From Calditrichia bacterium (GTDB lineage: Bacteria > Calditrichota > Calditrichia > RBG-13-44-9 > J075), in assembly GCA_050633245.1 (NCBI GenBank), contig JBOEGD010000005.1, forward strand, positions 1-64,000: a DNA stretch of 64,000 nucleotides. The letters run 5' to 3'. Made by a program: the position numbers and the translations under genes. A model generated the notes under the pieces. The model was not told the DNA's origin, searched no databases, and saw only the letters and a list, made by a program, of their open reading frames with translations. This document shows, in pieces, positions 34,565-56,240 of this stretch; position 1 is the first letter of the stretch, and every line of letters starts with the position of its first letter.

Positions 34565-34620
34565 AAGCTGTATTCCATTACGTTTTTAAAAGATACGGAC
34601 TGAGTTTTTGAAATCCAACG

Positions 34621-36628: not shown

Positions 36629-36636
36629 TTAATAAT

Positions 36637-37584
36637 TTAATCTTCTACAGACACTTTGGCAAACTCTCTGGCATTGAGTGCTGCCGCAGATTTATTTCCC
36701 AGTCTTGTGTTTAGCGTTTCGAGTATCGTATAAACGCCGGGCATTTCGGGATGAGAAACGGCTGCTTGTTGAGCATGATCGAGAGCTGAGTGAAACAAGT
36801 TATAGCGATAATACGCTGCGCTGAGCAAAAAATTAGTCGTCACAAGCTCTCCATTAGCAGGTTTTAGCGACTCGACTTCAAGAATATCCTGTTTTAGATT
36901 GGCGTGTTCTTCGTCTCCCATAATTGAAAAATATACCTTCGCCGATTGACGGCCACTGCTATCACTAATGAACCAGAGATATTGATCTTCTGAGTCTAGC
37001 TTAGGTGCGTTTGATGGATAGGCGAACCAGGTGCCATTAGCCTGTGTTGTGTAAAAAAAGTCACTTACTTCACTTTCTATCGTCAGCGTAAAGGAGCGGC
37101 CATGTATGGTATCAATCCAGCGGAATATCGGTCGAGATTCAAGGATCTTACTTCGCCTCGGGTAGACCGTCGATAGCGTTGTGTCCTCATCCGCAGTCTG
37201 CCAGCGAGTGGTTCCGGCCACAGATTTGGATTTCTCCTTTCCCCAAAGCAAATCGGACACGACTTTGCCGAGTCCGCTTGCCTGCGAATTCTTCTTGCTC
37301 TTTGAGCTGCGAATTTTATGGCTGCCGTTATTTCGCAACACGACTTCCTTCCCGGAATAATAAATAATAACGGCTTTGCCGCTACTCCCGGCCTTAATGT
37401 GATCTCCGTTTTTAAGCTTGCTGCTACTACGGGCTTTGCTCATTATGCCGCCAGATCTAATAGTTACATCGCCCTTGATGGATGAAAAAGCTGCGACGGA
37501 CTGCGCAGAAAGCTCGGCTGGTAATCCCAGAGCCAGGAGCATTATGAAGAATGTCTTGAGTTGTATTCTCATCTTGGATCTCAA
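36637..37584 (-). CDS. Exported FecR-like/DUF928-like protein with C-terminal TPR helices
   Basis: Signal peptide; S.KG.V.I...L..GD.I.....A.I.Y N-domain; Lys/Ser linker ending AGTTR; PR.SKI...RP.FRW...YP..AP.L...QY.W; helical C-terminus. Confidence 0.6.
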   Translation of the reverse strand: MRSKMRIQLKTFFIMLLALGLPAELSAQSVAAFSSIKGDVTIRSGGIMSKARSSSKLKNGDHIKAGSSGKAVIIYYSGKEVVLRNNGSHKIRSSKSKKNSQASGLGKVVSDLLWGKEKSKSVAGTTRWQTADEDTTLSTVYPRRSKILESRPIFRWIDTIHGRSFTLTIESEVSDFFYTTQANGTWFAYPSNAPKLDSEDQYLWFISDSSGRQSAKVYFSIMGDEEHANLKQDILEVESLKPANGELVTTNFLLSAAYYRYNLFHSALDHAQQAAVSHPEMPGVYTILETLNTRLGNKSAAALNAREFAKVSVED

Positions 37585-37610
37585 TTATTTCTTTTATTGA
37601 TAGAATGCCT

Positions 37611-40577
37611 TTATTTGCCGATTAGGATGAAAGGAGACCAATAAAATGGTGATGCATACTGTTCATCTTCAATAAGCTTTTGCTTGGCTCGCCGCAGCGA
37701 ATCGGACAATTTCTTCCCTTTGGCAACACGCTCGAAAAAATTAGTCATTAATATTGCTGTAGACTGATCGGAAACCTGCCAGAGTGAGACAGTTAGGTTT
37801 TTTGCCCCCGCATATAAAAATCCGCGGGTTAAGCCAATAATTCCTTCACCACGCACGAGCTTGCCAAGGCCGGTTTCGCACGCACTTAAGACAACCAGTT
37901 CGGCATTTAGATTCAGATTATATACTTCGGAAGAATATAATACAGCATCTTCCTCTGAAGAACTGTCTGCAGCAAGAAGAAGCCCGGAAAGCTGAGGTTG
38001 TTTTTCATTCACAAATCCATGTGTCGCAAAGTGAAGATAACGATATGATGATATATCTGCCGCTTTTATTTTATCCTCATTTGCCTGTTTGTTAAGCAGT
38101 AAGGTACTGCGTTTCTTTTTACGTTTAAAGATATTAGCAACTGCCGATGTTTCTTCTCTTGTCGCAGGTAGTGGTATTACCTTGCCATCACCGCGAAATA
38201 CTGCTGATGAATCCAGTGAGCGAACAGCTGCCAGAAAGTTGTTTTTGGATTGGAGTGTATCCGATTCATCCTCAAAGCCGGGTGCGAAGGCTAAATATCC
38301 AGAGGTCTTTTCTTGTCGACGCTGTTGGGTTTCTATCATCAGTCTCGCAGAGTAGCCATAGCCAATTGTTACCTCATGAATCAGATAGTCCAACGAAGTA
38401 AATTCTGCGTTCCGTTTGGCCGGTTGTGTTAGCAGTGCTTCAAATGGTAAATAGCCAAGAATGCCATCCGGAATAATTTGAAGGTGCTTTTTCTTTTTGA
38501 GGAGCGGCTGAAGAGGTTTGAGCAAGGTGGTGTAAAGCCGATTAGCGTAGCGGGCATATAAATTAATATCGTCGCGCACTAATCCGGAACGCATGAGTTT
38601 AACCTGTTTATCCAGATCTGCCGGCTTTTTAAGCTGAAATGCTTCGACGTTTTTGCGAGTAATTACAAAGGCGTAAATTGTACTGTCGCCAAGCATATAT
38701 TCAATCAGTGCGTCTTTTTTCCCGACCAGGTGTTTTCTTACATCGGAAACTTTCACATCGTTTGTCTGATATTTTAAATTATAGTACTGCGGATATTCTT
38801 TCTCCAGCCTGGCGGTCAATTTATCCAAGTCCAGCTTCAGCTTAAAGAGGCGGTCTTTCCATCCCGGTAATCGCAGCGAATCTACTTTGGCGCCTTTTTC
38901 CTGAGACTGCAAGACCCGTTGATTGAGTGCAGCCAGTTCGAAACGAATGGTTCGTTCTTTTTCAAGTAAAGTGTCTGGAATATTGGCAAAGCGCTTTGCT
39001 TCTACATCACTCAGTGCTTCAAGAAGTGTCCCCGACTTATTCTTTTCTGCGAACAGAAAGGCCTTTTCAGTAAAAGAATCGTCATTCGTAACCTGCGCTA
39101 ATTCAAGGGCCGTTTGTAATGCGCCATCGAAGGTCGTAGCAGATTGTTTTCCCAAAAACAGTTTAGAACCTTCTGCCTTAAAACCACTTCGCAGCGATTC
39201 TACAAAACCTCCTATGCGCTCATAGGTTGCGAGTGAAAGACGAAGATCCGGTAGATTCTGTGTCTCTTTATAACGCTTTCGAAGAAGAGTGGCCTTTTGT
39301 GTCATGTTTTCCAGCACCTTTTGTTCAGAAATAGTTTCTTCTTCGCCGGGGTTTTTTGCCAAATCCATATCGTCAAAGGAATAGGACAACGCACCAAGTG
39401 CTTTTTGATACTCTACCAGGGCTTCATCGAGTTTTCCCTGATGTTCGTACATCTCCCCGTATTTTTCAAACCCTTCAGCAATAAGCTCATGAACCGATCC
39501 ATAAAGCTCATCACGCATGCTTTTTGCCAGTTCAAAGTAGTGTGTCGCACTATCATAATCTGATTGGTGATAGGCAATAGCACCTAAACTAAGTTGAGCA
39601 TAAGAGACATATGGATGGTCTTCTCCGTAGGTGTCACTGTACCGTTTAAGAGCTTCGGTAAAATAAACTTTTGCAGTATCGTATTTAGCCATATCGTAAT
39701 AGACAATGCCAAGATTATAGTGCCCTGATGATCCGCTCGCCGAATTACCATAGACATCCAATGCAATTTTGAAATGGGAAATTGCTTTTTTGAACTCGCC
39801 CATTTCGCGATAGGTATTAGCAAAATTATTGTTGATGTAACCGACGTAGGGGTGTTTGTCGCCAAAATTTATCTTAATAAGCTCAAGCGTCTTTCCGTAA
39901 TAGTCCAGGGCGCGGTTGTAGTCACCACGATTATAGCTGACAATACCCAGGTTGTTATAGCTGGCCATGATATGCGGATGGGTTTCCGGTAGTGCATTTA
40001 TTCTGATCTCTAACGCTTTCTCGAAATAGACCAGCGCATTCGTAAAGTCATCCATATCGCCATAGCTTACCCCGATATTGTTCATTACCGCCGCTACATC
40101 AACGTGATTCTCTCCATAGGCTTTGCGCCGGATTGCCAGAGCTTTGTTTAAATACTCAAAGGATGTGGCGTAATCAGCCCAGTCTTGATAGAGAGAACCG
40201 ATGTTATTATACGCTGTCCCCAGCTGAATATGATCTTCTCCCAGAAGAGGAATAGCTTCTTCTATTGATTCCAGCAATACCTGCTCGGAAGAATCCAGTT
40301 TCTGCACCATTTGCAAATTCCCGCCGACAAAAATTTTGCATTGCATATAGGGCGACCATGCTTCAGTAAGGCCTTTTTCTGCAGCCTGTTTAAAAAGATC
40401 TCGAGCTTCGAAATAGAGCATGTTAGAGCTATCCATTTTTGATGCGCTTGCTAAAGCTTTGGCCTGTTTAAATAACGACCATGCTTTTGCTGTATCAGCG
40501 GCAGCTTCGTCCGCCTGGCAAATTGTCGAAGAGAACAAAACGGCAGATAACAAGAGAAGCAATGTCGATCGAATCAT
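37611..40577 (-). CDS. Exported TPR-repeat CHAT (caspase-like) protease
   Basis: Signal peptide; NN.G..Y...G.Y..AL.Y..KAL.I...G..HP TPRs; IIPDG.L..LPFEAL, catalytic LHFATHG and LSACETG, SLW.V.D, P.YW.PF. Confidence 0.93.
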   Translation of the reverse strand: MIRSTLLLLLSAVLFSSTICQADEAAADTAKAWSLFKQAKALASASKMDSSNMLYFEARDLFKQAAEKGLTEAWSPYMQCKIFVGGNLQMVQKLDSSEQVLLESIEEAIPLLGEDHIQLGTAYNNIGSLYQDWADYATSFEYLNKALAIRRKAYGENHVDVAAVMNNIGVSYGDMDDFTNALVYFEKALEIRINALPETHPHIMASYNNLGIVSYNRGDYNRALDYYGKTLELIKINFGDKHPYVGYINNNFANTYREMGEFKKAISHFKIALDVYGNSASGSSGHYNLGIVYYDMAKYDTAKVYFTEALKRYSDTYGEDHPYVSYAQLSLGAIAYHQSDYDSATHYFELAKSMRDELYGSVHELIAEGFEKYGEMYEHQGKLDEALVEYQKALGALSYSFDDMDLAKNPGEEETISEQKVLENMTQKATLLRKRYKETQNLPDLRLSLATYERIGGFVESLRSGFKAEGSKLFLGKQSATTFDGALQTALELAQVTNDDSFTEKAFLFAEKNKSGTLLEALSDVEAKRFANIPDTLLEKERTIRFELAALNQRVLQSQEKGAKVDSLRLPGWKDRLFKLKLDLDKLTARLEKEYPQYYNLKYQTNDVKVSDVRKHLVGKKDALIEYMLGDSTIYAFVITRKNVEAFQLKKPADLDKQVKLMRSGLVRDDINLYARYANRLYTTLLKPLQPLLKKKKHLQIIPDGILGYLPFEALLTQPAKRNAEFTSLDYLIHEVTIGYGYSARLMIETQQRRQEKTSGYLAFAPGFEDESDTLQSKNNFLAAVRSLDSSAVFRGDGKVIPLPATREETSAVANIFKRKKKRSTLLLNKQANEDKIKAADISSYRYLHFATHGFVNEKQPQLSGLLLAADSSSEEDAVLYSSEVYNLNLNAELVVLSACETGLGKLVRGEGIIGLTRGFLYAGAKNLTVSLWQVSDQSTAILMTNFFERVAKGKKLSDSLRRAKQKLIEDEQYASPFYWSPFILIGK

Positions 40578-40997
40578 GAGAACACTTCCTTTCTGATAAA
40601 ACGCATAACGGCACCTTTCATGCGGTGAAAAACAAGTTGCCTGATATCAAGATCAAACATTGTACCAAAAAAATAAAACAAACGCGTCAAGAAATAATGG
40701 CGAGGTTTTAGTCTTTGCCATTGTAAATAAACGACTTATAGAAGATGTGTTGCCGGGTTCCAGGTTGAACGGCTCTGCAGTCGGGGCGTACTGCTGAGAG
40801 ATTGTCGCAAAAAACGGACAGTTTGTCTTTTCCATAAGACACTAAAGCGAAATACAGGTATCCTCACACAATAAATTATACGATTTCTGAATCACTTATT
40901 CAAGTCGGTAGGCTCTATATGGTTTCGTTTCAAACCGTACGGCGGGTTATGTGATCCGCGCAACTACAACAGAGACGCTCAGCGACTTTATTTTTAA

Positions 40998-41134
40998 CAG
41001 GTCTTAAGAACAAGTCTGTCCGGCACCGACCTCCCGCACGGACAGCACCGGGGACACGGAGCGTCCCTCATTCAATACGCAGCACAAAAGAGCATTGGGA
41101 CATGAAGGGTCCCCGGTAGTTCTTTTTAGACCTG
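40998..41134. ncRNA. Candidate structured non-coding RNA (three-way junction), family unknown
   Basis: Closing stem CAGGTCT.AAGAAC / GTTCTT..AGACCTG enclosing hairpins CTGTCCG/CGGACAG and ACCGGGGAC/GTCCCCGGT (inner GTCCC/GGGAC). Confidence 0.4.
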
Positions 41135-41236
41135 AAAAACCCGTCCTGTTGCTCCGTAATTATTTCAGATTGTAGCCAGTGATTTTTGGTGCTATTTTTA
41201 GCGCCACAAACGAATCACTTATATCATTGGCAGACT

Positions 41237-42475
41237 ATGAACTCACTTTTGCTCGTTCTTCCCTCTTCAACCTATCGTACAAATGCCTTTATGGAAGCGG
41301 CAGCACGTCTTGACGTGACGGTTCTTGTTGCATCAGACCATCGTCAGGCAATGGCAGCGCTGGTTCCTGATACAACACTTGCGCTAAACTTTCGTAAGCC
41401 GGAACAAATTCGCGAGAAGATTGCGTCCTATTTTGAAAAGAATCCTTTTTTAACTGCCATCGGAGTAGATGATCAATCTGCGCATGTTGCCGCGCAAATT
41501 AATGAGACATTGGGCCTGCCGGGTATCCCAGTTGAAGCGACAGCCGCAGCTCGCAACAAATATCTAATGCGCCAAAAGCTGGCGGCAGCGGATGTGAATG
41601 TTCCAAACTTCGATCTCCATTCTTTGGAAAAACCACAACCAGATAAACCGGTGTACCCCTGCGTGTTAAAACCGACTTTTTTGTCAGCCAGTCGTGGCGT
41701 TACGCGCGCTAATAAACCGGGAGAATTTTCACAAGCCTTTTCAGCGCTAAGGGAATTGATTCGCACGCCGGAAATTTCAGCGCGAGCCCATGATGGCGAA
41801 GCTGCGAGTATTCTGGTGGAAGATTATGTGCCGGGAATGGAGGTGGCGCTGGAAGGAATTCTAACAGACGGCGATTTTAAAAGCCTGGCCATTTTTGATA
41901 AGCCTGACCCGCTGGAAGGCCCGCATTTTGTTGAAACAATCTATGTAACACCATCTCGGCTTCCTGCCTACGTGCAGCGTGAATTGATTCATGAGACACA
42001 TAAGGCAGCGCTTGCACTTGGTATCGACAACGGACCGGTGCACGCCGAGTTGCGAGTAAATGAGCAGGGCGCCTGGATTATTGAAATTGCCGCCAGATCG
42101 ATTGGCGGGCTTTGTTCACGCGTTTTGCGCTTCTCGGAAAAGCTGGTGTTAGAAGATCTGATCTTGCGTCAGGCAATTGGTGTGGATATCTCCGAAGTGC
42201 AGCGAGAGCGGCAGGCAGCAGCGGTGATGATGGTGCCGATTCCTTCTGCCGGACGGTTAAAACGAGTGGGTGGCGTTGACGAGGCGAGTGCCGTTGAAGG
42301 TGTGGAAGACGTGATTATCTCGATCCCCAATGGGCAGGAGGTTTTGCCCATGCCTTTTGGCGGGCGCTATTTAGGATTTATCTTTGCACGCGCGGATATG
42401 CCGGAAGAAGCTGAAGATTCAATACGACGAGCGCATGCCTGCTTGAAGATCGAGATTGACGACGGTACTGCATGA
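41237..42475 (+). CDS. ATP-grasp ligase (L-amino-acid ligase-like)
   Basis: NK..MR..L, YP.VLKP....SRGV, LVE.Y.PG.E...EG, H.E.R......IE.A.R..G; likely ATG 41237. Confidence 0.85.
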   Translation: MNSLLLVLPSSTYRTNAFMEAAARLDVTVLVASDHRQAMAALVPDTTLALNFRKPEQIREKIASYFEKNPFLTAIGVDDQSAHVAAQINETLGLPGIPVEATAAARNKYLMRQKLAAADVNVPNFDLHSLEKPQPDKPVYPCVLKPTFLSASRGVTRANKPGEFSQAFSALRELIRTPEISARAHDGEAASILVEDYVPGMEVALEGILTDGDFKSLAIFDKPDPLEGPHFVETIYVTPSRLPAYVQRELIHETHKAALALGIDNGPVHAELRVNEQGAWIIEIAARSIGGLCSRVLRFSEKLVLEDLILRQAIGVDISEVQRERQAAAVMMVPIPSAGRLKRVGGVDEASAVEGVEDVIISIPNGQEVLPMPFGGRYLGFIFARADMPEEAEDSIRRAHACLKIEIDDGTA

Positions 42476-43608
42476 TGACATCCGGCGATCTGCGTTTGCA
42501 GCTTGGCGTATTCGCACTCTCTTTTGCAGCTTTTGTGAATGTGTATCTCCCGCAACCCGTACTTCCTGTTATGCAGGAAGATTTATACTCCAACACTGTT
42601 TATACATCTCTGATTATCTCTGTACTATTCCTCGGTATTGCCTTTGGTAATATTCCTTTTGGGATGGCTATCGATCGCTTACCGATTCGTCCGATTGTTT
42701 TAGCCGGTGGGTCTGTTGTTGCTGTTACCGGGGCAATTTGCTGGCAATCGTCGGATTTACGAGTGATCATCGCAGCGCGTTTTTTACAGGGATTTTTTCT
42801 TCCGGCCATTACCAGTTGCCTGGCCGCATATCTTTCCCGAACGTTACCGCGTGAGCGTCTTAATCAGGTCCTGGGTGGATATGTTGCCGCGACCGTTGCC
42901 GGCGGCCTTGTTGGCCGCATGATTTCCGGACTTTTGCTACCGGCCGAAGAATGGCGAACGGCCTTCCTGATAGGGGTGACCATAACGATTATTGCACTAG
43001 CTATCTCGTATCACTCTTTTGATAACAAGCCTCTGTCTTCGTTGGAAGTAGCAGTTGTGAGCTTTAGCGAGCTATTGCGTCAAAAGGATGTAAGACTAAT
43101 TTTAATTTCGGCGGGTTTTGGAATGGCGGCGTTTGCTTCTGTGTTTAACTTCCTGCCATATCGTTTACAGTCTCCTCCGTTTACTTTGCCGGTGCGAACA
43201 TCGACGCTGTTCTATTTGCCTTATTTGATTGGCACGGTGGCAGCCTCTTTTGCCGGCTGGATGAGTAACCGGTTTAGCAATGGCATAACCATTCTCGCTG
43301 CAACCGGTTTACTCGTCTGTTCTATGATGTTGATTATGATGCCCAGCCTGACACTTACGGTTGTTGCGTTATTGGGAATGTGTGCAGGTTTCTTTGCATT
43401 GCATTCGGCGATGCTTGCAACCCTGAACAGGAAGTTGAACTCTGGCCATGGCAGGGCAAATGCCCTCTATGTATTATTCTATTATGTTGGCGCGTGGCTG
43501 GGAATAACAGTTGCCGGATTAGTCTACGAATCTGAAGGTTGGAATAGCATGGTTGCTATTTTAACTGCACTGCTGATTGTGCCTCTGTCGTTGGGACTGA
43601 AGAGGTAG
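42472..43608 (+). CDS. MFS transporter (YnfM-like)
   Basis: F..VY.PQP.LP, ARFLQG, Y.A....GG..GR, A..LY..FYY.G; 12 TM; overlaps the ATP-grasp stop. Confidence 0.88.
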   Translation: MMTSGDLRLQLGVFALSFAAFVNVYLPQPVLPVMQEDLYSNTVYTSLIISVLFLGIAFGNIPFGMAIDRLPIRPIVLAGGSVVAVTGAICWQSSDLRVIIAARFLQGFFLPAITSCLAAYLSRTLPRERLNQVLGGYVAATVAGGLVGRMISGLLLPAEEWRTAFLIGVTITIIALAISYHSFDNKPLSSLEVAVVSFSELLRQKDVRLILISAGFGMAAFASVFNFLPYRLQSPPFTLPVRTSTLFYLPYLIGTVAASFAGWMSNRFSNGITILAATGLLVCSMMLIMMPSLTLTVVALLGMCAGFFALHSAMLATLNRKLNSGHGRANALYVLFYYVGAWLGITVAGLVYESEGWNSMVAILTALLIVPLSLGLKR

Positions 43609-44217
43609 ATGTGGCATAAACATTTATTTTACAAAGAAACTATGTCTAACTGTTTTAAAGCTTCTGTTGCGAAATTCTTCTCGGGGGCAAAATAACGTTA
43701 ATTCTATTACTACCATAAAGTCGTTATTGATACTCAAAGGCTGGTCCAGCAAATTCAAACTAAGCGCGGTATTTCAAAACCATCTGGAATATAAAGTCGA
43801 GAGACTGAGTGGCCGTAGCGGCTACATTATTACTCAGGAGAAGTTGTATCGGTTGTTGAGTGATATTGAGAGTGATTGGTTAAAATAAACAAAAACAGCA
43901 GGCTATTTATTTCAATATGGGAAACCTATAAATATTGTTTTAGGTAAGCGGCCACACCATAAAGATGTTGCTTGCCCCCAGTGCGATTAAAACCTCCGCT
44001 ATTGAAGCGGACAAAAGACAAATATAGTATTTTAACCTGCTATAAAAATCTGCTCTCTTCATATTGCTATCCTCCTTCTCGGGCTGTTGACCCGTGTTTA
44101 TTACATTTAGTAGGTGATTTTTTACACATGAAAAAACCACAAAGACGACAGCACCAAAGACAAGCATAAGGGATTCTACACCTTTACAGCTAGCCGCAAG
44201 CCTAAAACAGCACTATT

Positions 44218-44466
44218 TCAATTTTCCTTATCTTTCGGTGGATTTGGATCGTTTCCTGGTTTCACAGTATCCTTACTTCGGATTTTACCATCACGACCTT
44301 TCGTAATACGCTCGCCACCACCTTGACTTTGCAACATTTGGGTCGCAGCCTTTTCAGCTTCTTTCTGAGTATCGTGAACAGAAGAAGCCTTTGTAGCGCC
44401 CAGTTTTTTGTTTGCCCATGTTCCGTCAGGACGACGAAAAATGATGCGATCTCTTTCTTTACTCAT
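44218..44466 (-). CDS. DUF2188-family small protein
   Basis: DG.W..KK.G..KAS..H.TQ.EA...A.......GGE....GRDGKIR..D....GNDP.PP. Confidence 0.8.
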   Translation of the reverse strand: MSKERDRIIFRRPDGTWANKKLGATKASSVHDTQKEAEKAATQMLQSQGGGERITKGRDGKIRSKDTVKPGNDPNPPKDKEN

Positions 44467-44610
44467 TTTTAATTCCCCTAAAGTCTGTTAAGTGGTTCGA
44501 AATTGATACAGCAAAAAACATTCCAAAACAGTACACACGTATATACGTCATTCGCCAGCGCGCCATAACTGTCTATAACAGCCCTTTTGTATATTTTTGA
44601 CACACAATCG

Positions 44611-45993
44611 TTAAGCAGCTCTGCTTAGTCCGGCCAATCCCAGCAACGGAACAACATCCCCCCGGCCGACGTATCGCAACAGTGCTTCGCACGGCTCATC
44701 GTACGGGTCCAGAAATTCTTCATTCTGTGCGAGATTGAAACGCTGTTGGGCGTAATTCGAGTTTGGCTCATCTCGGAACGGGTGTAAGCGGGCTAAAATT
44801 TCGTTAAGCAATTTAGATGCAAAATATGCATTAGCGCTGACAACCGCCAGCTGCTCTTCCTTCACGCCTATAATATAACCGGCCCGGCGCTGCTCTTCAT
44901 ATCCTGCTGGGTCAGACTGCTTTAGTGATTCCGCTCGAACCCCTTCCATGGATACGGCTCCCCGGCTAAGCACGCTTGAACCGCCCGGCTGCAAGTAGTG
45001 AATTGCTCCCCAAACACTCTCAACACCGCCTTTACCGTCCGGATCGATACGAACACCGACATCGAAATAAGGGATTGAATAGTAAGTTGCCAGGCGATTG
45101 AGCGTGTGGCGACCACTATGGGAATCGACACAACCGACCACGATATCGCATTCCGACAACGCTTCTATCGTCCCCGCCTCACCCAGTAAATGCGGAAAAG
45201 TTTTTACATCGGTGCCGAAACCGATTCGGTCAACAGCGTCGGCAGCGACATCGACTTTTAAGCGATTGTCCTGTGCATCCTGAAGAGTCGAATTGATAAT
45301 TCGGTTCAGGTTTCTTTCTTCAACCCGATCCGGATCGACCAGAACCAATCCTCCAACACCCTGGCGTGCTAGCAGCTCTACAACGAAGCTACCGGTTCCA
45401 GAACAGCCGACTACTCCTATCGTCAACTCGGATAGAAGATCACGGGTGCCGCGCGCAAACAGTTGTCCTGTTGTGGGTTTGAAATTAGACGAGACCCGCC
45501 AAATATTGATATCGTCTCCGGCAACGGATATTGAAGCCAGTGGCGTAAAATTACCCGAGACATCTACAACCCGGCCGATCAGACGACCATCAGGCAACAG
45601 AATAACGCTGGCATGGGGATCATCCGTATCCAGCCAACTATATACCGAACCGAAAAAGCTCCGATCCGCTTTGTCGTCGAGAATTGAAAAATCTTCCCAG
45701 CCTCCCGGGTGGCTATGCAGCTTCAAAATTCCACCACCACAGGCCTCTGCTTCTTCCAGCAAGGGAATAAGTAAATCGGTCGGCCATATCAGCAAGTCGT
45801 TTTCCCTGGCCCGGCAGGTATCGTACGGAACGAGCACCAGTTTTCGAATCATAATGCAGGTCTTATTCTTACCGGTTAACCGGCCACATAACGCTATTGC
45901 TGCCGCCTCTTTGCCGTCTTCCGGAAGCAGGTGCTTCATTAAAGCCTCATGCTGCTTACCGCTCATTCGCAAATGTAAGTTGTTCGTTCTCAT
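44611..45993 (-). CDS. Fused JAB/MPN+ deubiquitinase-like peptidase and ThiF/E1-like adenylating enzyme (BubCD-like)
   Basis: N-terminal DGKEAAA...LCG and JAB motif HSHPGG...FS..DD..D; C-terminal VGCSGTGS, D.D.VE..NLNR, GCVDS..GR..LN, D.GV; RBS GGAG before ATG 45993. Confidence 0.85.
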   Translation of the reverse strand: MRTNNLHLRMSGKQHEALMKHLLPEDGKEAAAIALCGRLTGKNKTCIMIRKLVLVPYDTCRARENDLLIWPTDLLIPLLEEAEACGGGILKLHSHPGGWEDFSILDDKADRSFFGSVYSWLDTDDPHASVILLPDGRLIGRVVDVSGNFTPLASISVAGDDINIWRVSSNFKPTTGQLFARGTRDLLSELTIGVVGCSGTGSFVVELLARQGVGGLVLVDPDRVEERNLNRIINSTLQDAQDNRLKVDVAADAVDRIGFGTDVKTFPHLLGEAGTIEALSECDIVVGCVDSHSGRHTLNRLATYYSIPYFDVGVRIDPDGKGGVESVWGAIHYLQPGGSSVLSRGAVSMEGVRAESLKQSDPAGYEEQRRAGYIIGVKEEQLAVVSANAYFASKLLNEILARLHPFRDEPNSNYAQQRFNLAQNEEFLDPYDEPCEALLRYVGRGDVVPLLGLAGLSRAA

Positions 45994-46004
45994 TATTAAG
46001 GCTC

Positions 46005-46697
46005 CTATTTGTTCAATTCCCTTTGAAACCAATCGCTAATCGCCAGCAGGTGCGTTGAAATGTTGTCGATTCCCGGACGCCATGGATTTTGGGGAGTGCG
46101 ATGTCTGGACCAGCGCTGCCAGTTTTTGCCATCAAGGTTATGACCGGCAAGCGCATCAATCGGTTTGCCGTCTTTACGAGCAAGTCCGGGATTAAAATAC
46201 GCCATATCGATCTGGACACCGGGATAACCGGCTTCGATTTTCAAAGCAACATCGACATTGTCGACATTATATCCGGAGCAAACTGGGTAATCACGAATGA
46301 TTACCCAGTTACCGTTATCACGGATGGTCTCCCAGTTTACACCGAGGTTGTCCAGATCAACTATATCTTCTTCGCTCAACTCAAATGTCTTGCGAAGCGT
46401 CTCACCGTCTTTGATTTCCAAAGGAAGGGTGATAAACCGCTCGACTCCCGGTTTGGTAAAATCCACCTTCTCATCGTAACCGACTTCGATCTTCTCACCC
46501 CGAACCCGCTGATACAGACGATAACAATCCGCCGGTTTCTTACCGGCGAGTTCCAGGATTTCGCGACCGGTCATACACTCTACCCGTACGACATACTTCT
46601 CGCGATCGACGCGGATGCGATAACGGCACCCGTGAGGCGGTACTTTTTCTGTTTTTGCATAGCTCTCGATATCGATAATGCGATCTTGCATAGCCAT
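46005..46697 (-). CDS. Fused multi-ubiquitin-family Ubl and prokaryotic E2 family E (BubA-BubB-like)
   Basis: Ubl YRIRVD.......MTGREILELAGK......LYQ...VDF..PGVERF.T.P....DG followed by E2 L...D...L..LG..WET...W.II..YP...GY....V.VAL.I..GYP..QIDM.YF.P.L.R.DG..I....WQRWSRH...NPWRPG.D...TH; AAGGAG RBS before ATG 46697. Confidence 0.85.
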   Translation of the reverse strand: MAMQDRIIDIESYAKTEKVPPHGCRYRIRVDREKYVVRVECMTGREILELAGKKPADCYRLYQRVRGEKIEVGYDEKVDFTKPGVERFITLPLEIKDGETLRKTFELSEEDIVDLDNLGVNWETIRDNGNWVIIRDYPVCSGYNVDNVDVALKIEAGYPGVQIDMAYFNPGLARKDGKPIDALAGHNLDGKNWQRWSRHRTPQNPWRPGIDNISTHLLAISDWFQRELNK

Positions 46698-46864
46698 CTC
46701 CTTTCGTTTATTTTGGCTTTCGCTTATCAATACGATAAATCGTGACATCAAGAAGCATATATGGAATCAATCGGTCAAACCTGTCACGCTTGATCGTATT
46801 AGATATTGAGGGGACTATTAAAACGGGTTTTGACCTTACTTAATTCATAGGATGTTATACTAAA

Positions 46865-47551
46865 ATGAACAAACAATTTTCGCAAGAAAGCGATGATGAT
46901 CTACTTATCTATATGTGTTTACAAAAGGATGCCCGTGTGGTTGCCGAAGAAGCGCTTGTAGAGTTTTATCACCGTCACAAGGATTATGTATTTAATATTT
47001 TAAAAAATAAGCTGGGAAGCTTCGTGAAGTCAGGTATCATTGAAGAAATTCATAATGATATTTTTCTGAAAGTTTTTTTAAAAGCGGATACATATAAACC
47101 AAGCTCCAATTCCAATGTTAGATCATGGCTTGGAAGGATAGCACAAAACTCTGCGTTTGATTGGGGGGCGAAGCATAAGCGAGAATCAAACGAGATAGCA
47201 TTGGAGATTGAAGAATGGAATGGTATTGAATTAGGTAAAAAGAATAATGCTGTTCGAGTCGACCACAGAAAAGGTGCTTTAACAAATGCCTTATTGAAAT
47301 TATCCGACCGCGATAGAGAGATTCTTTTAATATCTATGGATCACTACGATCCAGAAAAGCAGAATATTGATATACCACCTGCTATACTGGAAGAATTGTG
47401 TAAACGTCACAAAACTACTCGCGAGAATATCCGGCAAATTCGCAATAGAGCAAAAAAGAAAGTCGAAAAATACTTGAAGGAACATACTCCCCATTTGCAG
47501 ACAGAATCACCTAACTCAGAACCTGGCCCTCGAGTTGTTTCCAAAGACTGA
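46865..47551 (+). CDS. ECF-type sigma-70 factor
   Basis: Region 2 (A..EFY.RH...V...EEI.NDIFLKV....Y....RSWL.RIA.N...D) and region 4 (L.KLSDRDREIL...EL......ENIRQ...RA.KK). Confidence 0.78.
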   Translation: MNKQFSQESDDDLLIYMCLQKDARVVAEEALVEFYHRHKDYVFNILKNKLGSFVKSGIIEEIHNDIFLKVFLKADTYKPSSNSNVRSWLGRIAQNSAFDWGAKHKRESNEIALEIEEWNGIELGKKNNAVRVDHRKGALTNALLKLSDRDREILLISMDHYDPEKQNIDIPPAILEELCKRHKTTRENIRQIRNRAKKKVEKYLKEHTPHLQTESPNSEPGPRVVSKD

Positions 47552-47671
47552 ATATTAGAAAAACAGCTTCAATGAAAAGTCTATCTCGTTAGTATAAAAA
47601 ACTGACGAGAATTAGTTATGCACCGTGTATTTCATAACTTCAATTATGATTACCAGGCAGGAGAAGATTCC

Positions 47672-48034
47672 ATGAGATATTCCAAAAAAGGTCCTATAGT
47701 AAAATCACCCATTTCCGAGAAAAAACTTTATGAGTTGTTTCAAAATGAAAATCTGGTTTTTCCAAAAAACAAAGAAGAAGTCGCCAAGGCAGAGAGGCGA
47801 ATGGAGGAGAAAAAGTACACTTTGCCTACAGATTTACAAGAACCGACTAAACTACTTCGGCTATTAAGGAACAACACTAGGCAAGATAAATGTTTGAAAT
47901 CAGAAACAACTCCGAACCCTGAGGTTGAAGAAAATATGGCAAGAGCTGCGAGAGAAGGCGGAAATATTTCGCCTGAGATAGAAGCTATAATGCAAAGAGA
48001 TAGAGCTAAAGCTGAAAGTAAATCAACAAAATGA
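47672..48034 (+). CDS. Hypothetical small protein between sigma and ImmA (ORF could start at 47618)
   Basis: GGAGA RBS before ATG 47672; FP...EEV...E and MARAAREGG; ATGA overlap with the next gene. Confidence 0.65.
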   Translation: MRYSKKGPIVKSPISEKKLYELFQNENLVFPKNKEEVAKAERRMEEKKYTLPTDLQEPTKLLRLLRNNTRQDKCLKSETTPNPEVEENMARAAREGGNISPEIEAIMQRDRAKAESKSTK

Positions 48035-48879
48035 AACGAACTATTTCTAAGGCGAAAGAACAAGATATCTGTGATTTAGCGGAGGCTGTAGCCGAAGAAT
48101 ATACTACCGAGAGTTCCGATAAGGCAAACCTTGAGTTAATTGCTGAACAAAACGATATAACATATAGTTATGGACATTACGGCGAATCTTTTGATGGAAT
48201 GCTCGAGCATAAAAGCTCCCGCTTTCATATTTATTGTAACCTTGATAGACTCAAAAAATCGAATTCACCGAGATCGCGATTTACTTTTGCACATGAATTA
48301 GGACATTATTATATAGACGATCACAGAAATGCATTGGAAAGTGGAAAGGTTCCGGCCCACCCATCGATTTGTGAGTATCAATCAAAGAATATAGTAGAGC
48401 AAGAAGCAGACTTATTCGCGTCTAATTTACTTATGCCCGCTTCAAGGTTCAGCTCTTTGGTCGATTCGACACCTATTGGAGCAGAAAGTATATTTAAAGC
48501 GGCAAATCAGTTCAAAGTTTCTCTTTCAAGTGCAGCTGTCAGATATTGCAAAAGTGATATCGTTCCCTGTACTATTATTAAGTGGAGTCAAAGAGGCTAT
48601 GACTGGAAATTAATTTCTCTATCTACTTATAAAGCGACCCTAAGGAAAACAATAGAAAAAATTGGGGACATTCCCAGAGACTCTCCAACGTTTCGGATAT
48701 TAAATGAGGAGAGGCCTAAGGAAGGTTTTTTCGAAGCGGGCACGACAGTCGCACACTGGTTTCCGTATATTGATCATTCCTCGCAAAAAAAATCAATATT
48801 AATCGAGCAAGCTATCTCGCTTGGTTCCTATGGCGCTATTACCATTCTCTTCCCGGAATCCGGTCAGTATTCGAGTTAG
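48031..48879 (+). CDS. ImmA/IrrE-family zinc metallopeptidase (CapP-like)
   Basis: FDG.L, R.RFTFAHELGHY, E.EAD.FAS.LLMP, F.VS..SA..R; C-terminal GAF-like extension. Confidence 0.9.
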   Translation: MKRTISKAKEQDICDLAEAVAEEYTTESSDKANLELIAEQNDITYSYGHYGESFDGMLEHKSSRFHIYCNLDRLKKSNSPRSRFTFAHELGHYYIDDHRNALESGKVPAHPSICEYQSKNIVEQEADLFASNLLMPASRFSSLVDSTPIGAESIFKAANQFKVSLSSAAVRYCKSDIVPCTIIKWSQRGYDWKLISLSTYKATLRKTIEKIGDIPRDSPTFRILNEERPKEGFFEAGTTVAHWFPYIDHSSQKKSILIEQAISLGSYGAITILFPESGQYSS

Positions 48880-49122
48880 CCTATACACAAAGCGGTCAAC
48901 TGGATCTGCTGATCGGCGTGTATGTACTGGAGATGGACCGTCAGACTCCACAGCACGATTTGCCATGATGATGTGTATAGGCGGGGGAAATAGAAACATC
49001 AAAAACTTTGCCGCAACAAAAAGTAGATGAGAATAAAGCTAAGAAATAGTATTATATAGGTTTCTTGTATAATTTATTGCTGAAAATGTCATTGTTAGAA
49101 TTGAAACTCTTGAGAGAATTTT

Positions 49123-50121
49123 ATGCCTAAAAAAAAGATGGTTAAAAATATTCAAGAATCTTTTAAGACCAACAAATTCCTAACCCAAGTAGTAACCAGT
49201 ACTATAGCATCTGCGATCGTCTCTGTTGGAACCATGTTTTTTTTCATCCTTCCCAATCAACTTGCAGATATAGAGAAGAAGTTAGACAGCCTAATTTTGG
49301 TACAAAGTGACTCGACAACTGATTTTCAAATAGGTTCAAGAGGCAATCGCAAAGTTGACATAAAAGAGAGCGGTGATCTTAAAGGGGTAAATATCGTACA
49401 GGGTGACAATAACGCGATAGGTTCATCCCCGCAAGAATTAAAAGAGGCTATTGTTAATGATGAATTTAAGGGAATGTTGTATGAAGCAATTCAAGGACAA
49501 CCCATACCGAAAGATTTTAACATCACAAACAAGTACATAACTGTAAAAAAGTTTGAATTTATTCCTGATGCTGACAACGAGACGCCTGAAACTTCGGGAT
49601 ATAATAATTATCTAAAATCAATGCAAGCTCAAGTTAAGACAAAGCAGCAAATAACAGAAGAAGTTCTAGCCGAAGTAGATTCGGGAAACCTTAAGGGATT
49701 TGAATACACACAAAAAGAGATAGATGACAAGATTTCTTATCGCTTAAATCAAAGCAAACAAACATACGACAGACTCAAACTCGCTCAACGAAGTTTGGCG
49801 GGCAATATGATGCGTAATAGTAGTTCAGATATGAATTTGGATGAAGTTCCGGGAAAAATAGATTACGCAATAGAAAACCTTACAAACGAGCCCTATATGA
49901 TCATATACATAACTTATTCATGTTTAAACAAACAAGGGATAAGAATAGGTAAAGGCAGTATATCACTCGAAAACATACCTCCAAAGGCGACTGTCAAAGG
50001 TATTATACCTTTAGAAGATGTAAAACTTTCAAAAGCTGATCTGACAGACAAAGTGCAGATCGATGGAATTTATGACGCGCAGACAATCATGCAATATGCA
50101 AGAAGGTTAAACATTAGATAG
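49123..50121 (+). CDS. Hypothetical membrane-anchored protein with coiled coil and C-terminal FxLYD-like beta-sandwich
   Basis: One N-terminal TM; C-terminal I.N.T......I.ITY..LNK.G..IG......NI.P. Confidence 0.55.
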   Translation: MPKKKMVKNIQESFKTNKFLTQVVTSTIASAIVSVGTMFFFILPNQLADIEKKLDSLILVQSDSTTDFQIGSRGNRKVDIKESGDLKGVNIVQGDNNAIGSSPQELKEAIVNDEFKGMLYEAIQGQPIPKDFNITNKYITVKKFEFIPDADNETPETSGYNNYLKSMQAQVKTKQQITEEVLAEVDSGNLKGFEYTQKEIDDKISYRLNQSKQTYDRLKLAQRSLAGNMMRNSSSDMNLDEVPGKIDYAIENLTNEPYMIIYITYSCLNKQGIRIGKGSISLENIPPKATVKGIIPLEDVKLSKADLTDKVQIDGIYDAQTIMQYARRLNIR

Positions 50122-50370
50122 CCTGAATCTTAAAACTACTCTTCACCGGCACCGTACTCAGCTTCTCTCCAAAACCCAGCACATGCTCGCCGGTGTAGAG
50201 AACAATCCCACGCACGAAGCGATCGCCCAGCGATTCGGAAAGGTTTCGCAGCCCGCGAAAGTCGCCGCTCTTGACGTCGGAGCTTCCCTTTACCTCAATG
50301 CCGACGACGTTGCTAGCAGTGTCTTCCAGCAGAATATCCACTTCCAAACCGTTCCGGGTGCGGAAATTTT
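50114..50370 (-). pseudogene. 3' remnant of an AAA_14/DUF4143 ATPase-nuclease gene
   Basis: FRTRNGLEVDILLE......GIEVK.S......DFRGLR.L.......F.RGIVLY.G; only the C-terminal about 85 codons remain. Confidence 0.75.
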
Positions 50371-50377
50371 ATCAAAT

Positions 50378-51643
50378 CTACTCCGCCAAACGAAATCCTT
50401 TAAACTGCCAGCGCTTACTCGTTTGGAAAAAGTTGCGGTAGGTTATCCTTGCATGATTCTTCGAGGTTGCGCATGATGAGCCGCGCAGTACCATCTGATC
50501 GATCATAAACTTTCCGTTGTACTCGCCAAGTGGACCGCCAGTGCGTTTGTAGCCGGGATAAGGCAGATAGCTGCTGCCGGTCCATTCCCAAACGTCGCCC
50601 ATCATTTGAAACAGACGTCCATCTCCTTGAACAGACGACTTGGTTGCCGGTTGTGGATGATACGCCTCGCTGTCAAAGTAATTGCCTTCTGCTCCTTCAA
50701 CGTTGCAACGTCTTGCTGCAACTTCCCACTCTGCTTCCGTCGGCAATCGCTTGCCGGCCCAAATTGCGTAGGCGTCCGCTTCATAGTAGCTTACGTGGCA
50801 AACCGGCGCCTGCAGGTTTAGTTTGCGCAATCCACCGAGAGTAAACTCATACCACTGATTATCTACCTTTTGCCAATAAAAGGGCGTTTGCAGAGTTCCA
50901 TTCTTAACCTGTTCCCAGGCATCCGACAGCCAAAATCGAAAGTCATTATAGCCACCGTCCTCAACGAATCTTAGATAATCGCCATTTGTTACCAGGCGAT
51001 TTTGCAGCTTGAAATCAGCGAGATACTGTTTGTGGACAGGACGCTCATTATCGTAGTAAAATCCATTACCCTGATAACCGATTTCGACCACACCACCGGC
51101 GAATTCAATAAATTGGGATGTAAGTGCCGGACCGTCATTGTCGGGAAGATTTTCGCGATAAGCCGGCTGAAGCGGATTACTGGCAAAAATGTATTTTATA
51201 TCGGTGATTAACAATTCCTGATGCTGTTGCTCGTGGTTGAGCGCAAGGACGAGCGTATCGCAAAACTCGCCCCATTTTGCATCATCTACATTGTCAATTA
51301 AGTCGCACATATGGTTGGTAATGTGCGCACGATAGGCCATTACCTCGCCAACTGTCGGACGCGAGAGGCTGCCACGCATATCGCGGTTTACGCGGGTGCC
51401 GAAAGATTCATAGTAGGAGTTGAATACGAACGCATACTCGGGATGGTAAGGTGTATATCCGGAAATGTATTTGTCGAGAAAAATAGCTTCATAGAACCAG
51501 CTGGTGTGTCCAAGGTGCCATTTGGGCGGGCTCACATCTAAAATAGGCTGAATAACATAGTCTTCTACACTTAGCGGAGCACAAATGTCTTCGGTTGTTT
51601 GACGCACTGCGAGAAAAAAGCGGGTTAGTTCTGCGCGATTCAT
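50378..51643 (-). CDS. egtB: Ergothioneine biosynthesis sulfoxide synthase EgtB (DinB-like plus FGE domain)
   Basis: SP.KWHL.HT.WF.E, FNSYY, RG..SRP, HEQQHQEL..TD, DNE.P.H, GDVWEWT, EYNGKFM, RWQF.G.RL. Confidence 0.88.
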   Translation of the reverse strand: MNRAELTRFFLAVRQTTEDICAPLSVEDYVIQPILDVSPPKWHLGHTSWFYEAIFLDKYISGYTPYHPEYAFVFNSYYESFGTRVNRDMRGSLSRPTVGEVMAYRAHITNHMCDLIDNVDDAKWGEFCDTLVLALNHEQQHQELLITDIKYIFASNPLQPAYRENLPDNDGPALTSQFIEFAGGVVEIGYQGNGFYYDNERPVHKQYLADFKLQNRLVTNGDYLRFVEDGGYNDFRFWLSDAWEQVKNGTLQTPFYWQKVDNQWYEFTLGGLRKLNLQAPVCHVSYYEADAYAIWAGKRLPTEAEWEVAARRCNVEGAEGNYFDSEAYHPQPATKSSVQGDGRLFQMMGDVWEWTGSSYLPYPGYKRTGGPLGEYNGKFMIDQMVLRGSSCATSKNHARITYRNFFQTSKRWQFKGFRLAE

Positions 51644-51809
51644 TTACTCTCCTTTAAAATTGGACGCGTCTTTTCGGACGTTATTAAAATTGGGTCTTTT
51701 AACTTAGCCCAAGACAACGCCCTTTTCAAATGGATAAAGGAAAAAGTATCTACATTCAAATTAAAGATAGAGCATTGTCTCTATGGATATGAATGGCTAT
51801 TATTGACGC

Positions 51810-52601
51810 ATGAATAACTCGTTTAAAAGCAGGATTGCATCGCCGCTGATACACTACTTTGGCAGAAGAAAGGAGCGGCGAAAGTTTACCAAACCGCCTG
51901 TTATTATTGGCGGGTGTGGGCGTTCCGGTACCACCCTGTTGCTGTCTATACTTTCTGCGCATCCGGCGATCCACGTCTTGCCCTGGGAATCTCGCATCTT
52001 TGCACAGTGGAATAAGGTAGATCAGTCTGAGGAGAGCTGTGGACTGGAGTATCTGCCGAAGCGCCTTGACAGGCTTTACCGAAATTTTTTGGGAAATCGC
52101 ATTCCTCCTTCCGTCGATCGATGGTGTGAAAAAACACCTTCAAACATATTATTTCTTCCGCAGACGCTGGCCTGGTTTAACAATCGCGTCAAATTTATAC
52201 ATATTATCCGGGATGGCAGGGATGTAATGACCTCAATTCATCCTGACGATCCGGCAAAATACTGGGTAGAGCCGGAGCGCTGGGTGCGCGATACGCGAGC
52301 GGGTTTGGTCTATCGTGAACATCCAAGTGTACTGACTATCAAGTATGAAGATCTGATGACAGATCATCAACAGAGCTTGCAAAAAATATGCGAGTTTATT
52401 GAAGCTGACTTTGTTGAGGAAATTCGTTCCTGGCATGAGCATGCGACACTGCGAAAAAACCAGGCCTGGTTTGACCGTCTGAAAAAACCACATACGAATT
52501 CGATTCGCAAATGGGAAAAACCGGAACATGCGGATCGTTTGAAAATACTGCTGGGGAATGATGAGGTTGTTGCGCTATTGGAAGAGCTGAAATACGTTTA
52601 G
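51810..52601 (+). CDS. Sulfotransferase (Sulfotransfer_3 family)
   Basis: PAPS-binding GCGRSGTTLL, W.EKTP, IIRDGRDV..S, .KYEDL. Confidence 0.9.
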   Translation: MNNSFKSRIASPLIHYFGRRKERRKFTKPPVIIGGCGRSGTTLLLSILSAHPAIHVLPWESRIFAQWNKVDQSEESCGLEYLPKRLDRLYRNFLGNRIPPSVDRWCEKTPSNILFLPQTLAWFNNRVKFIHIIRDGRDVMTSIHPDDPAKYWVEPERWVRDTRAGLVYREHPSVLTIKYEDLMTDHQQSLQKICEFIEADFVEEIRSWHEHATLRKNQAWFDRLKKPHTNSIRKWEKPEHADRLKILLGNDEVVALLEELKYV

Positions 52602-52602
52602 G

Positions 52603-52722
52603 CGGTGAACGGTGAACGGTGAATGGTGAACGGTGAACGGGCAGAAAAGGAAGTGAGAAACGAAAGTGAGAAACGAAAGTGAGAAACGAAAGTGAGAAAA
52701 GAAGGTGAGAAACGGTGAGAAG
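52603..52722. repeat. Compound tandem repeat: (CGGTGAA)x5 then (AAAGTGAGAAACG) about x5
   Basis: Read directly between two convergent genes. Confidence 0.92.
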
Positions 52723-52819
52723 CAGTCAGAAAGACCCATAAGCACCGTAGGTGTGCCCCATTGAGTGAAGCGCCCAATCAATGAGCGCTCCTCGAAAATA
52801 ATCACTCATATATCACCAA

Positions 52820-53698
52820 TTACTTCAACAATACCAACTTTCTGGTCTGCACAAAGCCATCCGTCTCAAGCTGGTAGAAATAAATTCCACCGGAAAGATC
52901 CTGCGGCTGCCACTCGGCCTTATAGCTTCCGGGAGTCAGCTCTTCATTTACCAGCGTTTCAACTTCCTGCCCAAGTGGATTAAAAATCGTCAGCTTTACG
53001 TTGCTGGTTTTGGTGGTTGAAAATTCAATGGTCGTCGATGGATTGAACGGATTTGGATAGTTCTGCATCAGCTTGAAGGATTCGGCTACTCCGGCATCTT
53101 CAAGTGGTTCTACTCCTGTGGCGAACGCAAACTCCAGGTCATCAACCTGAATCGTAGCAAATGTTGTTTGTTCTGGAGATGCGGATGCGGTAATCCCCAT
53201 AATTATACTGGCAAAAGCGGCATCTCCGCTTCCAAAGTAAACAATAGGTACATTAAATGGCAAATAGCTTTGAGTGAGTTGGCTGAAACTCCCGCTTCCG
53301 GTTGCGATCGGTGTCCTTCCAGCATCACTGATGATAATACTAACGGCTAACGCAACGCCAAAAGAACCCTCCAGGCTGTCCAATTTGTAAAACCCGTTGA
53401 GTGAGCTGTAGTTTTGGGTGATCGGAAAAAAATTGTCGATTTCGTTCCCGGTCCCAATTATTGGAGGGATGGGATCATCTGGCCCGGAAATGAGTTCTCC
53501 AAGAATAGCGGATGAACCACTATTTGCGTCTCCTGTTTCCGTGACATTTGTAAGGATACCCGGAAGGTTGCTGGTAAACCATCCGTTAGGTTCTCCACCC
53601 GTCCAATTTTCGAATCCGGGGTTGGGGATTTCGTTTTGCGCTGATAATAGTGTTGTGAATGCCACAATACATAGCATACTGTAAAGAAAAATTTTCAT
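52820..53698 (-). CDS. Secreted carbohydrate-binding-like protein with C-terminal sorting domain
   Basis: Signal peptide; IPN.GFENW....P.GW...VDDL; QNYPNPFNPST...RKLVLLK. Confidence 0.75.
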   Translation of the reverse strand: MKIFLYSMLCIVAFTTLLSAQNEIPNPGFENWTGGEPNGWFTSNLPGILTNVTETGDANSGSSAILGELISGPDDPIPPIIGTGNEIDNFFPITQNYSSLNGFYKLDSLEGSFGVALAVSIIISDAGRTPIATGSGSFSQLTQSYLPFNVPIVYFGSGDAAFASIIMGITASASPEQTTFATIQVDDLEFAFATGVEPLEDAGVAESFKLMQNYPNPFNPSTTIEFSTTKTSNVKLTIFNPLGQEVETLVNEELTPGSYKAEWQPQDLSGGIYFYQLETDGFVQTRKLVLLK

Positions 53699-53816
53699 TT
53701 TTCCTCCTGGAAAGGATAGTTAAGGGGAGTTCTTATCCAAAATTAGCAGGATTTTCGGTGCAAAGCTGTGAGTACCGTCAGAATGTTTTGCAAATGAGGA
53801 AGTATGTAGGAGTAAC

Positions 53817-53859
53817 CAGATGAAAACCCGGTTGATCTGGTTGACCGGATTTTCATCTG
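53817..53859. terminator. Intergenic hairpin (terminator-like)
   Basis: CCAGATGAAAA.CCGGT...ACCGG.TTTTCATCTGG inverted repeat. Confidence 0.55.
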
Positions 53860-53870
53860 GAATCAAATAG

Positions 53871-56177: not shown

Positions 56178-56240
56178 CTTTTATTCCTTTGTAAACGGTA
56201 TAACATTGGTTCATTTGGTAATAATTTAAAATCGAACGGA

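Follow-up and report, generated by a model that had tools for sequence, protein, structure and literature searches.

The window analysed here, a stretch of 64,000 nucleotides (nt) from a Calditrichia bacterium (GenBank assembly GCA_050633245.1, contig JBOEGD010000005.1, positions 1 to 64,000 of the forward strand), contains two adjacent minus-strand open reading frames (ORFs; gene 1, 46005..46751, and gene 2, 44611..46032) which, on the evidence of sequence comparison and structure prediction, very probably form a Type I Bub pathway's conjugating core, in a variant that lacks the bubE gene. Type I Bub (bacterial ubiquitination-like) operons, formerly 6E.1, are described as comprising BubAB, BubCD and the DUF6527 protein BubE (Ye, Gong, Chambers and Corbett, bioRxiv 10.1101/2024.11.21.623953, hereafter Ye et al.; the journal version is given in a reference list as Nat Struct Mol Biol 2026;33:71), and the operon studied there is that of Citrobacter sp. 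RHBSTW-00271 (PDB entries 9ea4, 9ea8, 9eae and 9eav). Judged by their sequences, the window genes are orthologues of Citrobacter BubB and BubCD, gene 1 encoding a ubiquitin-like protein (Ubl) fused to an E2 conjugating enzyme and gene 2 a JAB peptidase fused to an E1 activating enzyme. An initial annotation of this DNA, made from the letters alone, had described a compact two-gene ubiquitination module; two genes are indeed what the locus holds, but as a design of the family this description fails, since the canonical operon has bubE, which has been lost here. The tag system itself, with its fusion, cleavage and oxyester chemistry, has already been published as Type I Bub, so that what had been deduced from the two genes was right but not new.

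For bubAB, the favoured start is the ATG at 46691, with AAGGAG 6 nt upstream, which gives a Ubl-E2 fusion pre-protein of 228 amino acids (aa) plus stop (46005..46691, minus strand); the ATG at 46697, from which the initial annotation had begun the gene, is also possible, while extension of the ORF to the TTG at 46751 is unlikely because a promoter-like motif, described below, falls inside the extension. Pfam models for Multi_ubiq (ORF residues 44–109, E 3.2e-14, 53.3 bits against a cut-off of 24.5) and Prok-E2_E (ORF residues 126–244, E 1.9e-34) both matched within this one in-frame ORF, bearing out the proposal that a single Ubl is joined in frame to an E2 of family E. In a search of PDB sequences the Ubl half (BubA part, residues 1–96, 46404..46691) resembled multi-ubiquitin proteins and residues 155–229 of Citrobacter BubA, and the E2 half (BubB part, residues 97–228, 46005..46403) resembled Citrobacter BubB (9eav_D, E 8.6e-21). 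The stretch LPLEIKDG closes the Ubl as had been claimed, its last residue being Gly96 of the 228-aa protein (codon 46404–46406), which aligns on the C-terminal glycine of 9ea8_B and 9d59_A and is the predicted mature C-terminus and site of JAB cleavage. In the E2, Ser195 (46107–46109), His197 (46101–46103) and Asp162 (46206–46208) correspond to S333, H335 and D299 of Citrobacter BubB, in agreement with the suggestion that a serine takes the place of the usual cysteine; the first two of these residues lie in the WQRWSRH motif noted earlier, and both QRWSRH and the QIDM that contains Asp162 are retained in the E2 rows of alignment A2.

Structure prediction (AlphaFold2, 16-row alignment) gave a model of BubAB with a mean predicted local distance difference test score (pLDDT) of 89.3, with a drop to 62 over the block of ten residues containing the Ubl/E2 junction. 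Foldseek matched the C-terminal half of this model to BubB 9eae_C (template modelling (TM) score 0.91, root-mean-square deviation 1.5 Å, 40% identity) and the N-terminal half to the BubA beta-grasp domain of 9ea8_B (TM 0.77), as well as to other beta-grasp domains such as the Ras-binding domains of Raf. The N-terminal domain is thus predicted to adopt the beta-grasp fold on which the initial annotation had made its proposal depend.

The likely start of bubCD is the ATG at 45993, with AGGAG 8 nt upstream overlapping the TAG stop of bubAB, and the gene encodes a protein of 460 aa plus stop in which a JAB/JAMM peptidase is fused to an E1 (44611..45993, minus strand). Over ORF residues 21–469 the protein gave a full-length match to Citrobacter BubCD (9ea4_A, E 8.1e-84), which is far beyond chance. 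Its entire N-terminal domain (about residues 1–165, 45499..45993) can be aligned to the solved protein's JAB domain and also has a sub-threshold Prok-JAB match considered below, and its E1 adenylation domain (about residues 175–460, 44611..45471) matches ThiF in Pfam (E 2.1e-27). The JAB motif HSH...S..D, reported earlier as fused to ThiF, is present and aligned to 9ea4_A: the site comprises Glu29 (45907–45909), His93 (45715–45717), His95 (45709–45711), Ser103 (45685–45687) and Asp106 (45676–45678), with Glu29, His93, His95 and Asp106 corresponding to E28, H91, H93 and D104 of the Citrobacter protein (the numbering offset to the solved chain was verified on the D104A mutant chain). The E1 domain carries GCSGTG at residue 196, the adenylation arginine Arg231 (45301–45303) and a crossover-loop tyrosine, Tyr373 (44875–44877). 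In alignment A1, which holds ten BubCD sequences (the window protein and nine relatives), His93, Asp106, Arg231 and Tyr373 are invariant, while conservation reaches at least 90% for Glu29, His95 and Ser103. The replacement of the usual cysteine stretch by PGGSSVLS was found at residue 336 as described, and the crossover stretch from residue 336 to residue 385 contains no cysteine.

These features correspond closely to the biochemistry reported for the Citrobacter system. According to Ye et al., BubCD cleaves BubAB directly after Gly229, as located by Edman sequencing, and this activity is lost in the E28A and D104A mutants; the catalytic cysteine is absent from both the E1 and the E2; conjugation is abolished by Y370F in the E1 crossover loop or by S333A/H335A in the E2; and BubA, BubB and BubCD together give robust conjugation in E. 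coli without BubE, which is described as a weak Ser/His protease that strips conjugates. By analogy, the same chemistry would operate at the window locus, where the E1 is taken to act through its conserved crossover-loop tyrosine, here Tyr373, a point missing from the initial annotation. BubAB would be made as a pre-protein and cut after Gly96 by the JAB domain of BubCD, releasing both the E2 and a Ubl of one domain that ends in glycine; this Ubl glycine would then be adenylated by BubCD's E1 domain, and the Ubl would pass as an oxyester to Tyr373, then to Ser195 of the E2 with the assistance of His197 and Asp162, and lastly to target lysines. No dedicated enzyme would remove the resulting conjugates. 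The cut after the glycine had been predicted earlier and matches, by analogy, both the Citrobacter experiments and the ends of split relatives given below. The 1:1 ratio of Ubl to E2 and the proteolytic on-switch that were derived from it are putative. The idea that this is a new polyprotein version does not hold, as a Ubl fused to an E2 is what defines Type I Bub (formerly 6E.1) in the literature.

Compared with the Citrobacter operon, the window shares the Ubl-E2 fusion with a conserved junction glycine, the JAB-E1 fusion, the JAMM site of E/HxH/S/D form, the cysteine-free crossover loop with its invariant tyrosine, the Ser/His/Asp residues of the E2 and a CapP-type regulator nearby. However, BubE (DUF6527) is missing from the window genome, BubA has three beta-grasp domains in Citrobacter and one in the window, and the regulators are CapH plus CapP in the former and a sigma factor, a 138-aa protein and CapP in the latter. 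Type II Bub systems (6E.2: BubA, a BubBD E2-E1 fusion and BubE) share with the window, as outlined in the same literature, the oxyester chemistry (E1 Tyr, E2 Ser) and the families of their Ubl, E2 and E1, whereas their E2 is fused to the E1, a JAB is usually absent and Lys and His stand beside the E2 serine; the window has the Type I layout with His and Asp. The bacterial ISG15-like system (Bil, BilABCD) is likewise a bacterial set of Ubl, E2, JAB and E1 linked to phage defence, but it is described by Ye et al. as having separate proteins, an E1 catalytic-cysteine domain and thioester chemistry, whereas the window proteins have no candidate catalytic cysteine in the E1 crossover loop or the E2 active site.

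Related loci were surveyed in a set of 90, made up of 10 loci from species-level genomes and, out of 541 metagenomic relatives that a BubCD alignment brought up, the best 80; the relatives were 43–55% identical to the window proteins. Six-frame translations of these loci were scanned with the window proteins and with a BubE hidden Markov model (HMM) built from the ten genome loci. Scans with the single BubCD protein had returned 75 stretches from metagenome contigs and 4 from viral contigs, with no relative among either, and the metagenomic relatives emerged only with the alignment-based scan. Both Ubl and E2 were visible in 72 of the 90 loci, fused in 30 and split in 42, with the two forms intermixed among close relatives; Table S1 of Ye et al. 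likewise includes Type I operons of either form. Among the 42 split loci, 31 have a BubA frame whose last codon before the stop is glycine, and several of the others have 1–4 extra residues after the glycine. All six split BubA frames placed in alignment A2 end at the column of window Gly96, and Gly96 is therefore independently supported as the mature C-terminus.

The survey also places the missing gene in context. bubE follows bubCD in 82 of the 90 loci, which are all 82 of those that extend past bubCD, the eight loci without a visible bubE (L020, L023, L048, L060, L066, L071, L077 and L087) all ending no more than 121 nt after bubCD; the DUF6527 domain was confirmed with Pfam in each of the ten genome loci. 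The published catalogue of Bub operons consists of the DUF6527-containing operons of Millman et al. 2022 (Table S1 of Ye et al., and the Methods of a companion preprint), so that the presence of bubE in all Bub operons is true by construction in that literature. A sample chosen by BubCD tests the linkage independently of DUF6527, and it shows bubE travelling tightly with the pathway.

At the window locus bubE was not found. A search of the whole 6.35-Mb genome with PF20137 (DUF6527) gave a best E of 0.17, a level that control genomes reach as well, and tblastn with 10 BubE proteins together with the BubE HMM over all six-frame ORFs of the genome gave nothing better than E 0.06. The possibility that a 75-aa ORF (43940..44167) is a degenerate BubE was rejected, as it had no family match and no match to the BubE HMM. 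The window locus is the only one without bubE among 83 comparable loci (82 relatives and the window). In a maximum-likelihood tree made by a quick search from 87 BubCD rows (four rows with envelopes shorter than 400 aa were dropped), the window protein lies within the radiation of bubE-bearing operons on a terminal branch of 0.99, against a median of 0.22, and because it nests there the loss of bubE is specific to the window lineage. Only one of 86 genomes of the phylum, the window's own, has a BubCD homologue at E ≤ 1e-20 (none of the other 85), from which it is concluded that the Bub island came in by horizontal transfer.

Several of these observations weigh against the view that the two genes are a working Bub core whose deconjugase has been lost. 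The best relative of the window BubCD is only 52% identical to it; its Prok-JAB match (E 1.6e-4, 21.9 bits) falls under the 25-bit Pfam cut-off; bubE may possibly lie on an unassembled piece of the genome, which is 97% complete in 59 contigs; the long BubCD branch and this identity of only 52%, together with the loss of bubE, could mean relaxed selection; and, with regard to function, Ye et al. report that their search for a Bub operon protecting E. coli against phage was unsuccessful. The main competing account holds that the operon is a decaying remnant, in which bubE has been deleted, selection on the system has gone and both remaining genes are becoming pseudogenes. Such decay would fit the uniqueness of the locus among the 83, its long terminal branch and the confinement of the operon to one of the 86 phylum genomes, from which it would be a recent and dispensable acquisition; and such operons do degenerate, as seen in an Ignavibacteriales metagenome-assembled genome (L006:5983-8039), where bubA has in-frame stops and bubCD is fragmented beside an intact bubE. 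However, both window frames are intact and have good ribosome-binding sites, no catalytic residue of the JAB, E1 or E2 has been lost and neither has the Ubl glycine, the three regulator genes and the two promoter-like motifs are likewise undamaged, and the published three-protein reconstitution conjugates without BubE. Decay is accordingly regarded as unlikely, and since both genes are intact and conjugation without BubE has been published, a working conjugation core without its eraser is the simplest reading. The locus would then stand as a rare exception in nature, its conjugation proceeding with no dedicated deconjugase.

A further possibility is that the gene which now follows bubCD has taken over from bubE. 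The stop of bubCD is followed by 144 nt that contain no frame, and then by a same-strand gene for an 82-aa DUF2188 protein (44218..44466, minus strand; PF09954, E 1.5e-18; PADLOC PDC-S16, E 3e-20), so placed that it stands where relatives carry bubE. That this protein replaces BubE as deconjugase or regulator might also be argued from PDC-S16 being a model for defence candidates and from the recurrence of DUF2188 genes beside Type I Bub, homologues having been found in 4 of the 90 loci (L006:5637-5918, L008:5501-5848, L011:98-340 and L069:2497-2724), all confirmed with Pfam. In those four loci, however, the gene lies directly upstream of bubA on the same strand, on the opposite side from its position downstream of bubCD in the window, and coexists with bubE. 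The 82-aa protein has neither the four cysteines nor the Ser/His pair of BubE and no relative among solved structures at E ≤ 0.3, and the gene has its own ribosome-binding site and a G+C content below that of the Bub genes. Replacement of BubE is thus very improbable, and DUF2188 is probably a recurrent accessory or neighbour. Finally, it is hardly credible that the locus serves a sulfur-carrier or cofactor pathway of ThiS/ThiF or MoaD/MoeB type in place of protein conjugation, since, although the E1 domain does match ThiF/MoeB models, all equivalog models of these families score far under their cut-offs (e.g. TIGR02356, 64.5 against 275 bits), the E2, the JAB, the Ubl-E2 fusion and the full-length BubCD orthology favour conjugation, and no sulfurtransferase, thiamine or molybdopterin gene occurs among the ORFs listed or scanned in 41000..50500.

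Divergent from bubAB lies a set of three plus-strand genes that may control the conjugating core. The first encodes a 228-aa factor of the sigma-70 family, of extracytoplasmic function (ECF) type (46865..47551; Sigma70_r2, E 1.9e-7 in Pfam; TIGR02937, E 1.8e-14, over its cut-off). The second encodes a 138-aa protein without a known family (47618..48034), of which the true start may be Met19. The third, which overlaps the second by 4 nt, encodes a CapP-like metallopeptidase of the M78 (IrrE) type (48031..48879) with an HELGH motif, matching PADLOC capP over residues 10–273 of 282 (E 2.9e-47) and Peptidase_M78 (E 8.4e-12). Neither the 138-aa protein nor its homologues matched any family (Pfam, NCBIfam and PADLOC for the former), and a helix-turn-helix (HTH) of the CapH type, sought with the same three resources in this protein beside capP, was not detected. 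Among the 90 related loci the sigma HMM matched in 12; homologues of the 138-aa protein occur in L068, L092, L016 and L061, and close homologues of the window CapP in L068 and L092. The N-terminal motif of the 138-aa protein also begins longer proteins at L016:1113-1778 and L061:2-1375 (both minus strand), the former with a middle part that looks HTH-like by eye and the latter joined to an M78 peptidase motif as well as to a P-loop resembling that of UvrD-type helicases.

Anti-sigma factors clamp their sigma partners at regions 2 and 4. When the sigma factor (11-row alignment) and the 138-aa protein (4-row alignment) were modelled together, the interaction prediction score from aligned errors (ipSAE) was 0.83 in every one of three runs, whereas the best of three controls scored 0.13; in calibration, 116 of the 157 solved complexes and 2 of the 215 mismatched pairs came up to the mark used for this score, figures that are only roughly valid with custom alignments. 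Contacts agreed between runs by at least 62%, the pLDDT of the partner was at least 62, and the predicted interface joins residues 30–86 of the 138-aa protein to residues 28–97 and 137–204 of the sigma factor, the latter being Pfam regions 2 and 4. This pass may partly reflect likeness to the many solved sigma/anti-sigma complexes; the 138-aa protein is a candidate soluble anti-sigma factor, and it may be a substrate cut by CapP.

A 17-nt motif lies between the two divergent units. Two divergent copies of TGTCACG-N6-CGTA are present between bubAB and the sigma gene, one facing bubAB about 40 nt before the ATG at 46691 (46731..46747, minus strand) and the other facing the sigma gene (46782..46798, plus strand), these being the 2 matches in the window against 0.03 expected. 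A looser form, TGTCAC[GC]-N5-nC[AG]T[AT], occurs in the DNA separating the sigma gene from bubA in 11 of the 12 loci that carry the sigma gene (L002, L003, L004, L007, L015, L016, L061, L068, L075, L083 and L092), every copy facing a gene; L007 has its two operons in the same orientation, with one copy ahead of the sigma gene and another ahead of bubA. The N5 form was found in none of the 78 loci without a sigma gene, five of which have N4 or N6 look-alikes, none directly upstream of bubA. As the motif was derived from nine of the sigma-bearing loci, the independent part of this comparison consists of L002, L003 and L007 together with the sigma-less loci. Across the window genome TGTCACS-N6-CRTW gave 13 matches against 16 for a reversed control, with no sign of a wider regulon, and the TGTCAC-CGTA spacing is too short for an ordinary -35 element. 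The motif is taken as a candidate promoter element of the sigma factor, and the copy before bubAB would be a sigma-dependent promoter element of the Bub genes.

Modules of related composition have been noted elsewhere. Lau et al. (bioRxiv 10.1101/2022.04.27.489752) mention 24 cyclic oligonucleotide-based antiphage signalling systems (CBASS) that have capH, capP and a sigma-70-family factor and leave this unexplained, and a literature search found no paper explaining the role of the sigma factor. The CapH plus CapP DNA-damage switch outlined in that preprint, which 168 of the 544 Bub operons catalogued by Ye et al. carry, resembles the window arrangement in having a CapP-type M78 gene beside, and divergent from, an immune-type operon; it differs in that the window protein in the position of CapH has no detectable HTH and is predicted to bind the sigma factor. 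A second resemblance is to protease-released ECF sigma factors of defence islands, where an anti-sigma factor holds the ECF sigma factor until a defence-linked signal arrives. The CalpL/CalpT/CalpS proteins of type III CRISPR systems are one example, from which, as from DdvS/DdvA, the window differs in that its candidate protease is a CapP-type M78 enzyme and its candidate anti-sigma factor a small soluble protein without a known family. DdvS/DdvA, the second example, is from Myxococcus (PMC11506125).

The sigma/138-aa protein/CapP module probably switches expression of the Bub genes on after DNA damage or infection, with transcriptional induction proceeding, as we infer, through CapP, the 138-aa protein and the sigma factor in turn. 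We tentatively extend this to a fuller scheme, itself rather doubtful in its entirety, of a deconjugase-free Bub system gated solely by transcription and by JAB processing: CapP would destroy the soluble 138-aa anti-sigma factor and so free the ECF sigma factor, which would read the 17-nt motif before its own operon and before bubAB, and the trio and its motif would go together with some of the Type I Bub operons across several phyla. If true, the cutting of an anti-sigma factor by CapP in place of an HTH repressor would be an undescribed use of CapP. Earlier literature merely noted that a sigma factor is sometimes present, and the recurrent module with its motif provides a model, open to testing, of the way some Bub operons are switched on. 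A stress response or anti-phage defence is the likeliest role for the window locus; the anti-phage role is suggested by genomic context only.

No mark of the borders of the Bub island was found: there is no tRNA gene in 30000..60000, and there are no flanking direct repeats around 43400..50600. Within 43600..50400, matches to the sigma-70 promoter consensus (12, against 14.7 in shuffles) were not above chance and matches to a terminator consensus (9, against 6.8) were not above shuffles. The sequence itself contains no N in 43001..51000. Beyond the CapP-like gene, 49123..50121 (plus strand) encodes a 332-aa protein whose sole match is a weak, sub-cut-off FxLYD domain and which has homologues in none of the 90 related loci, and beside it lies a 77-aa ORF without a family match (50114..50347, minus strand); these two ORFs separate the Bub island from a 421-aa ORF at 50378..51643.

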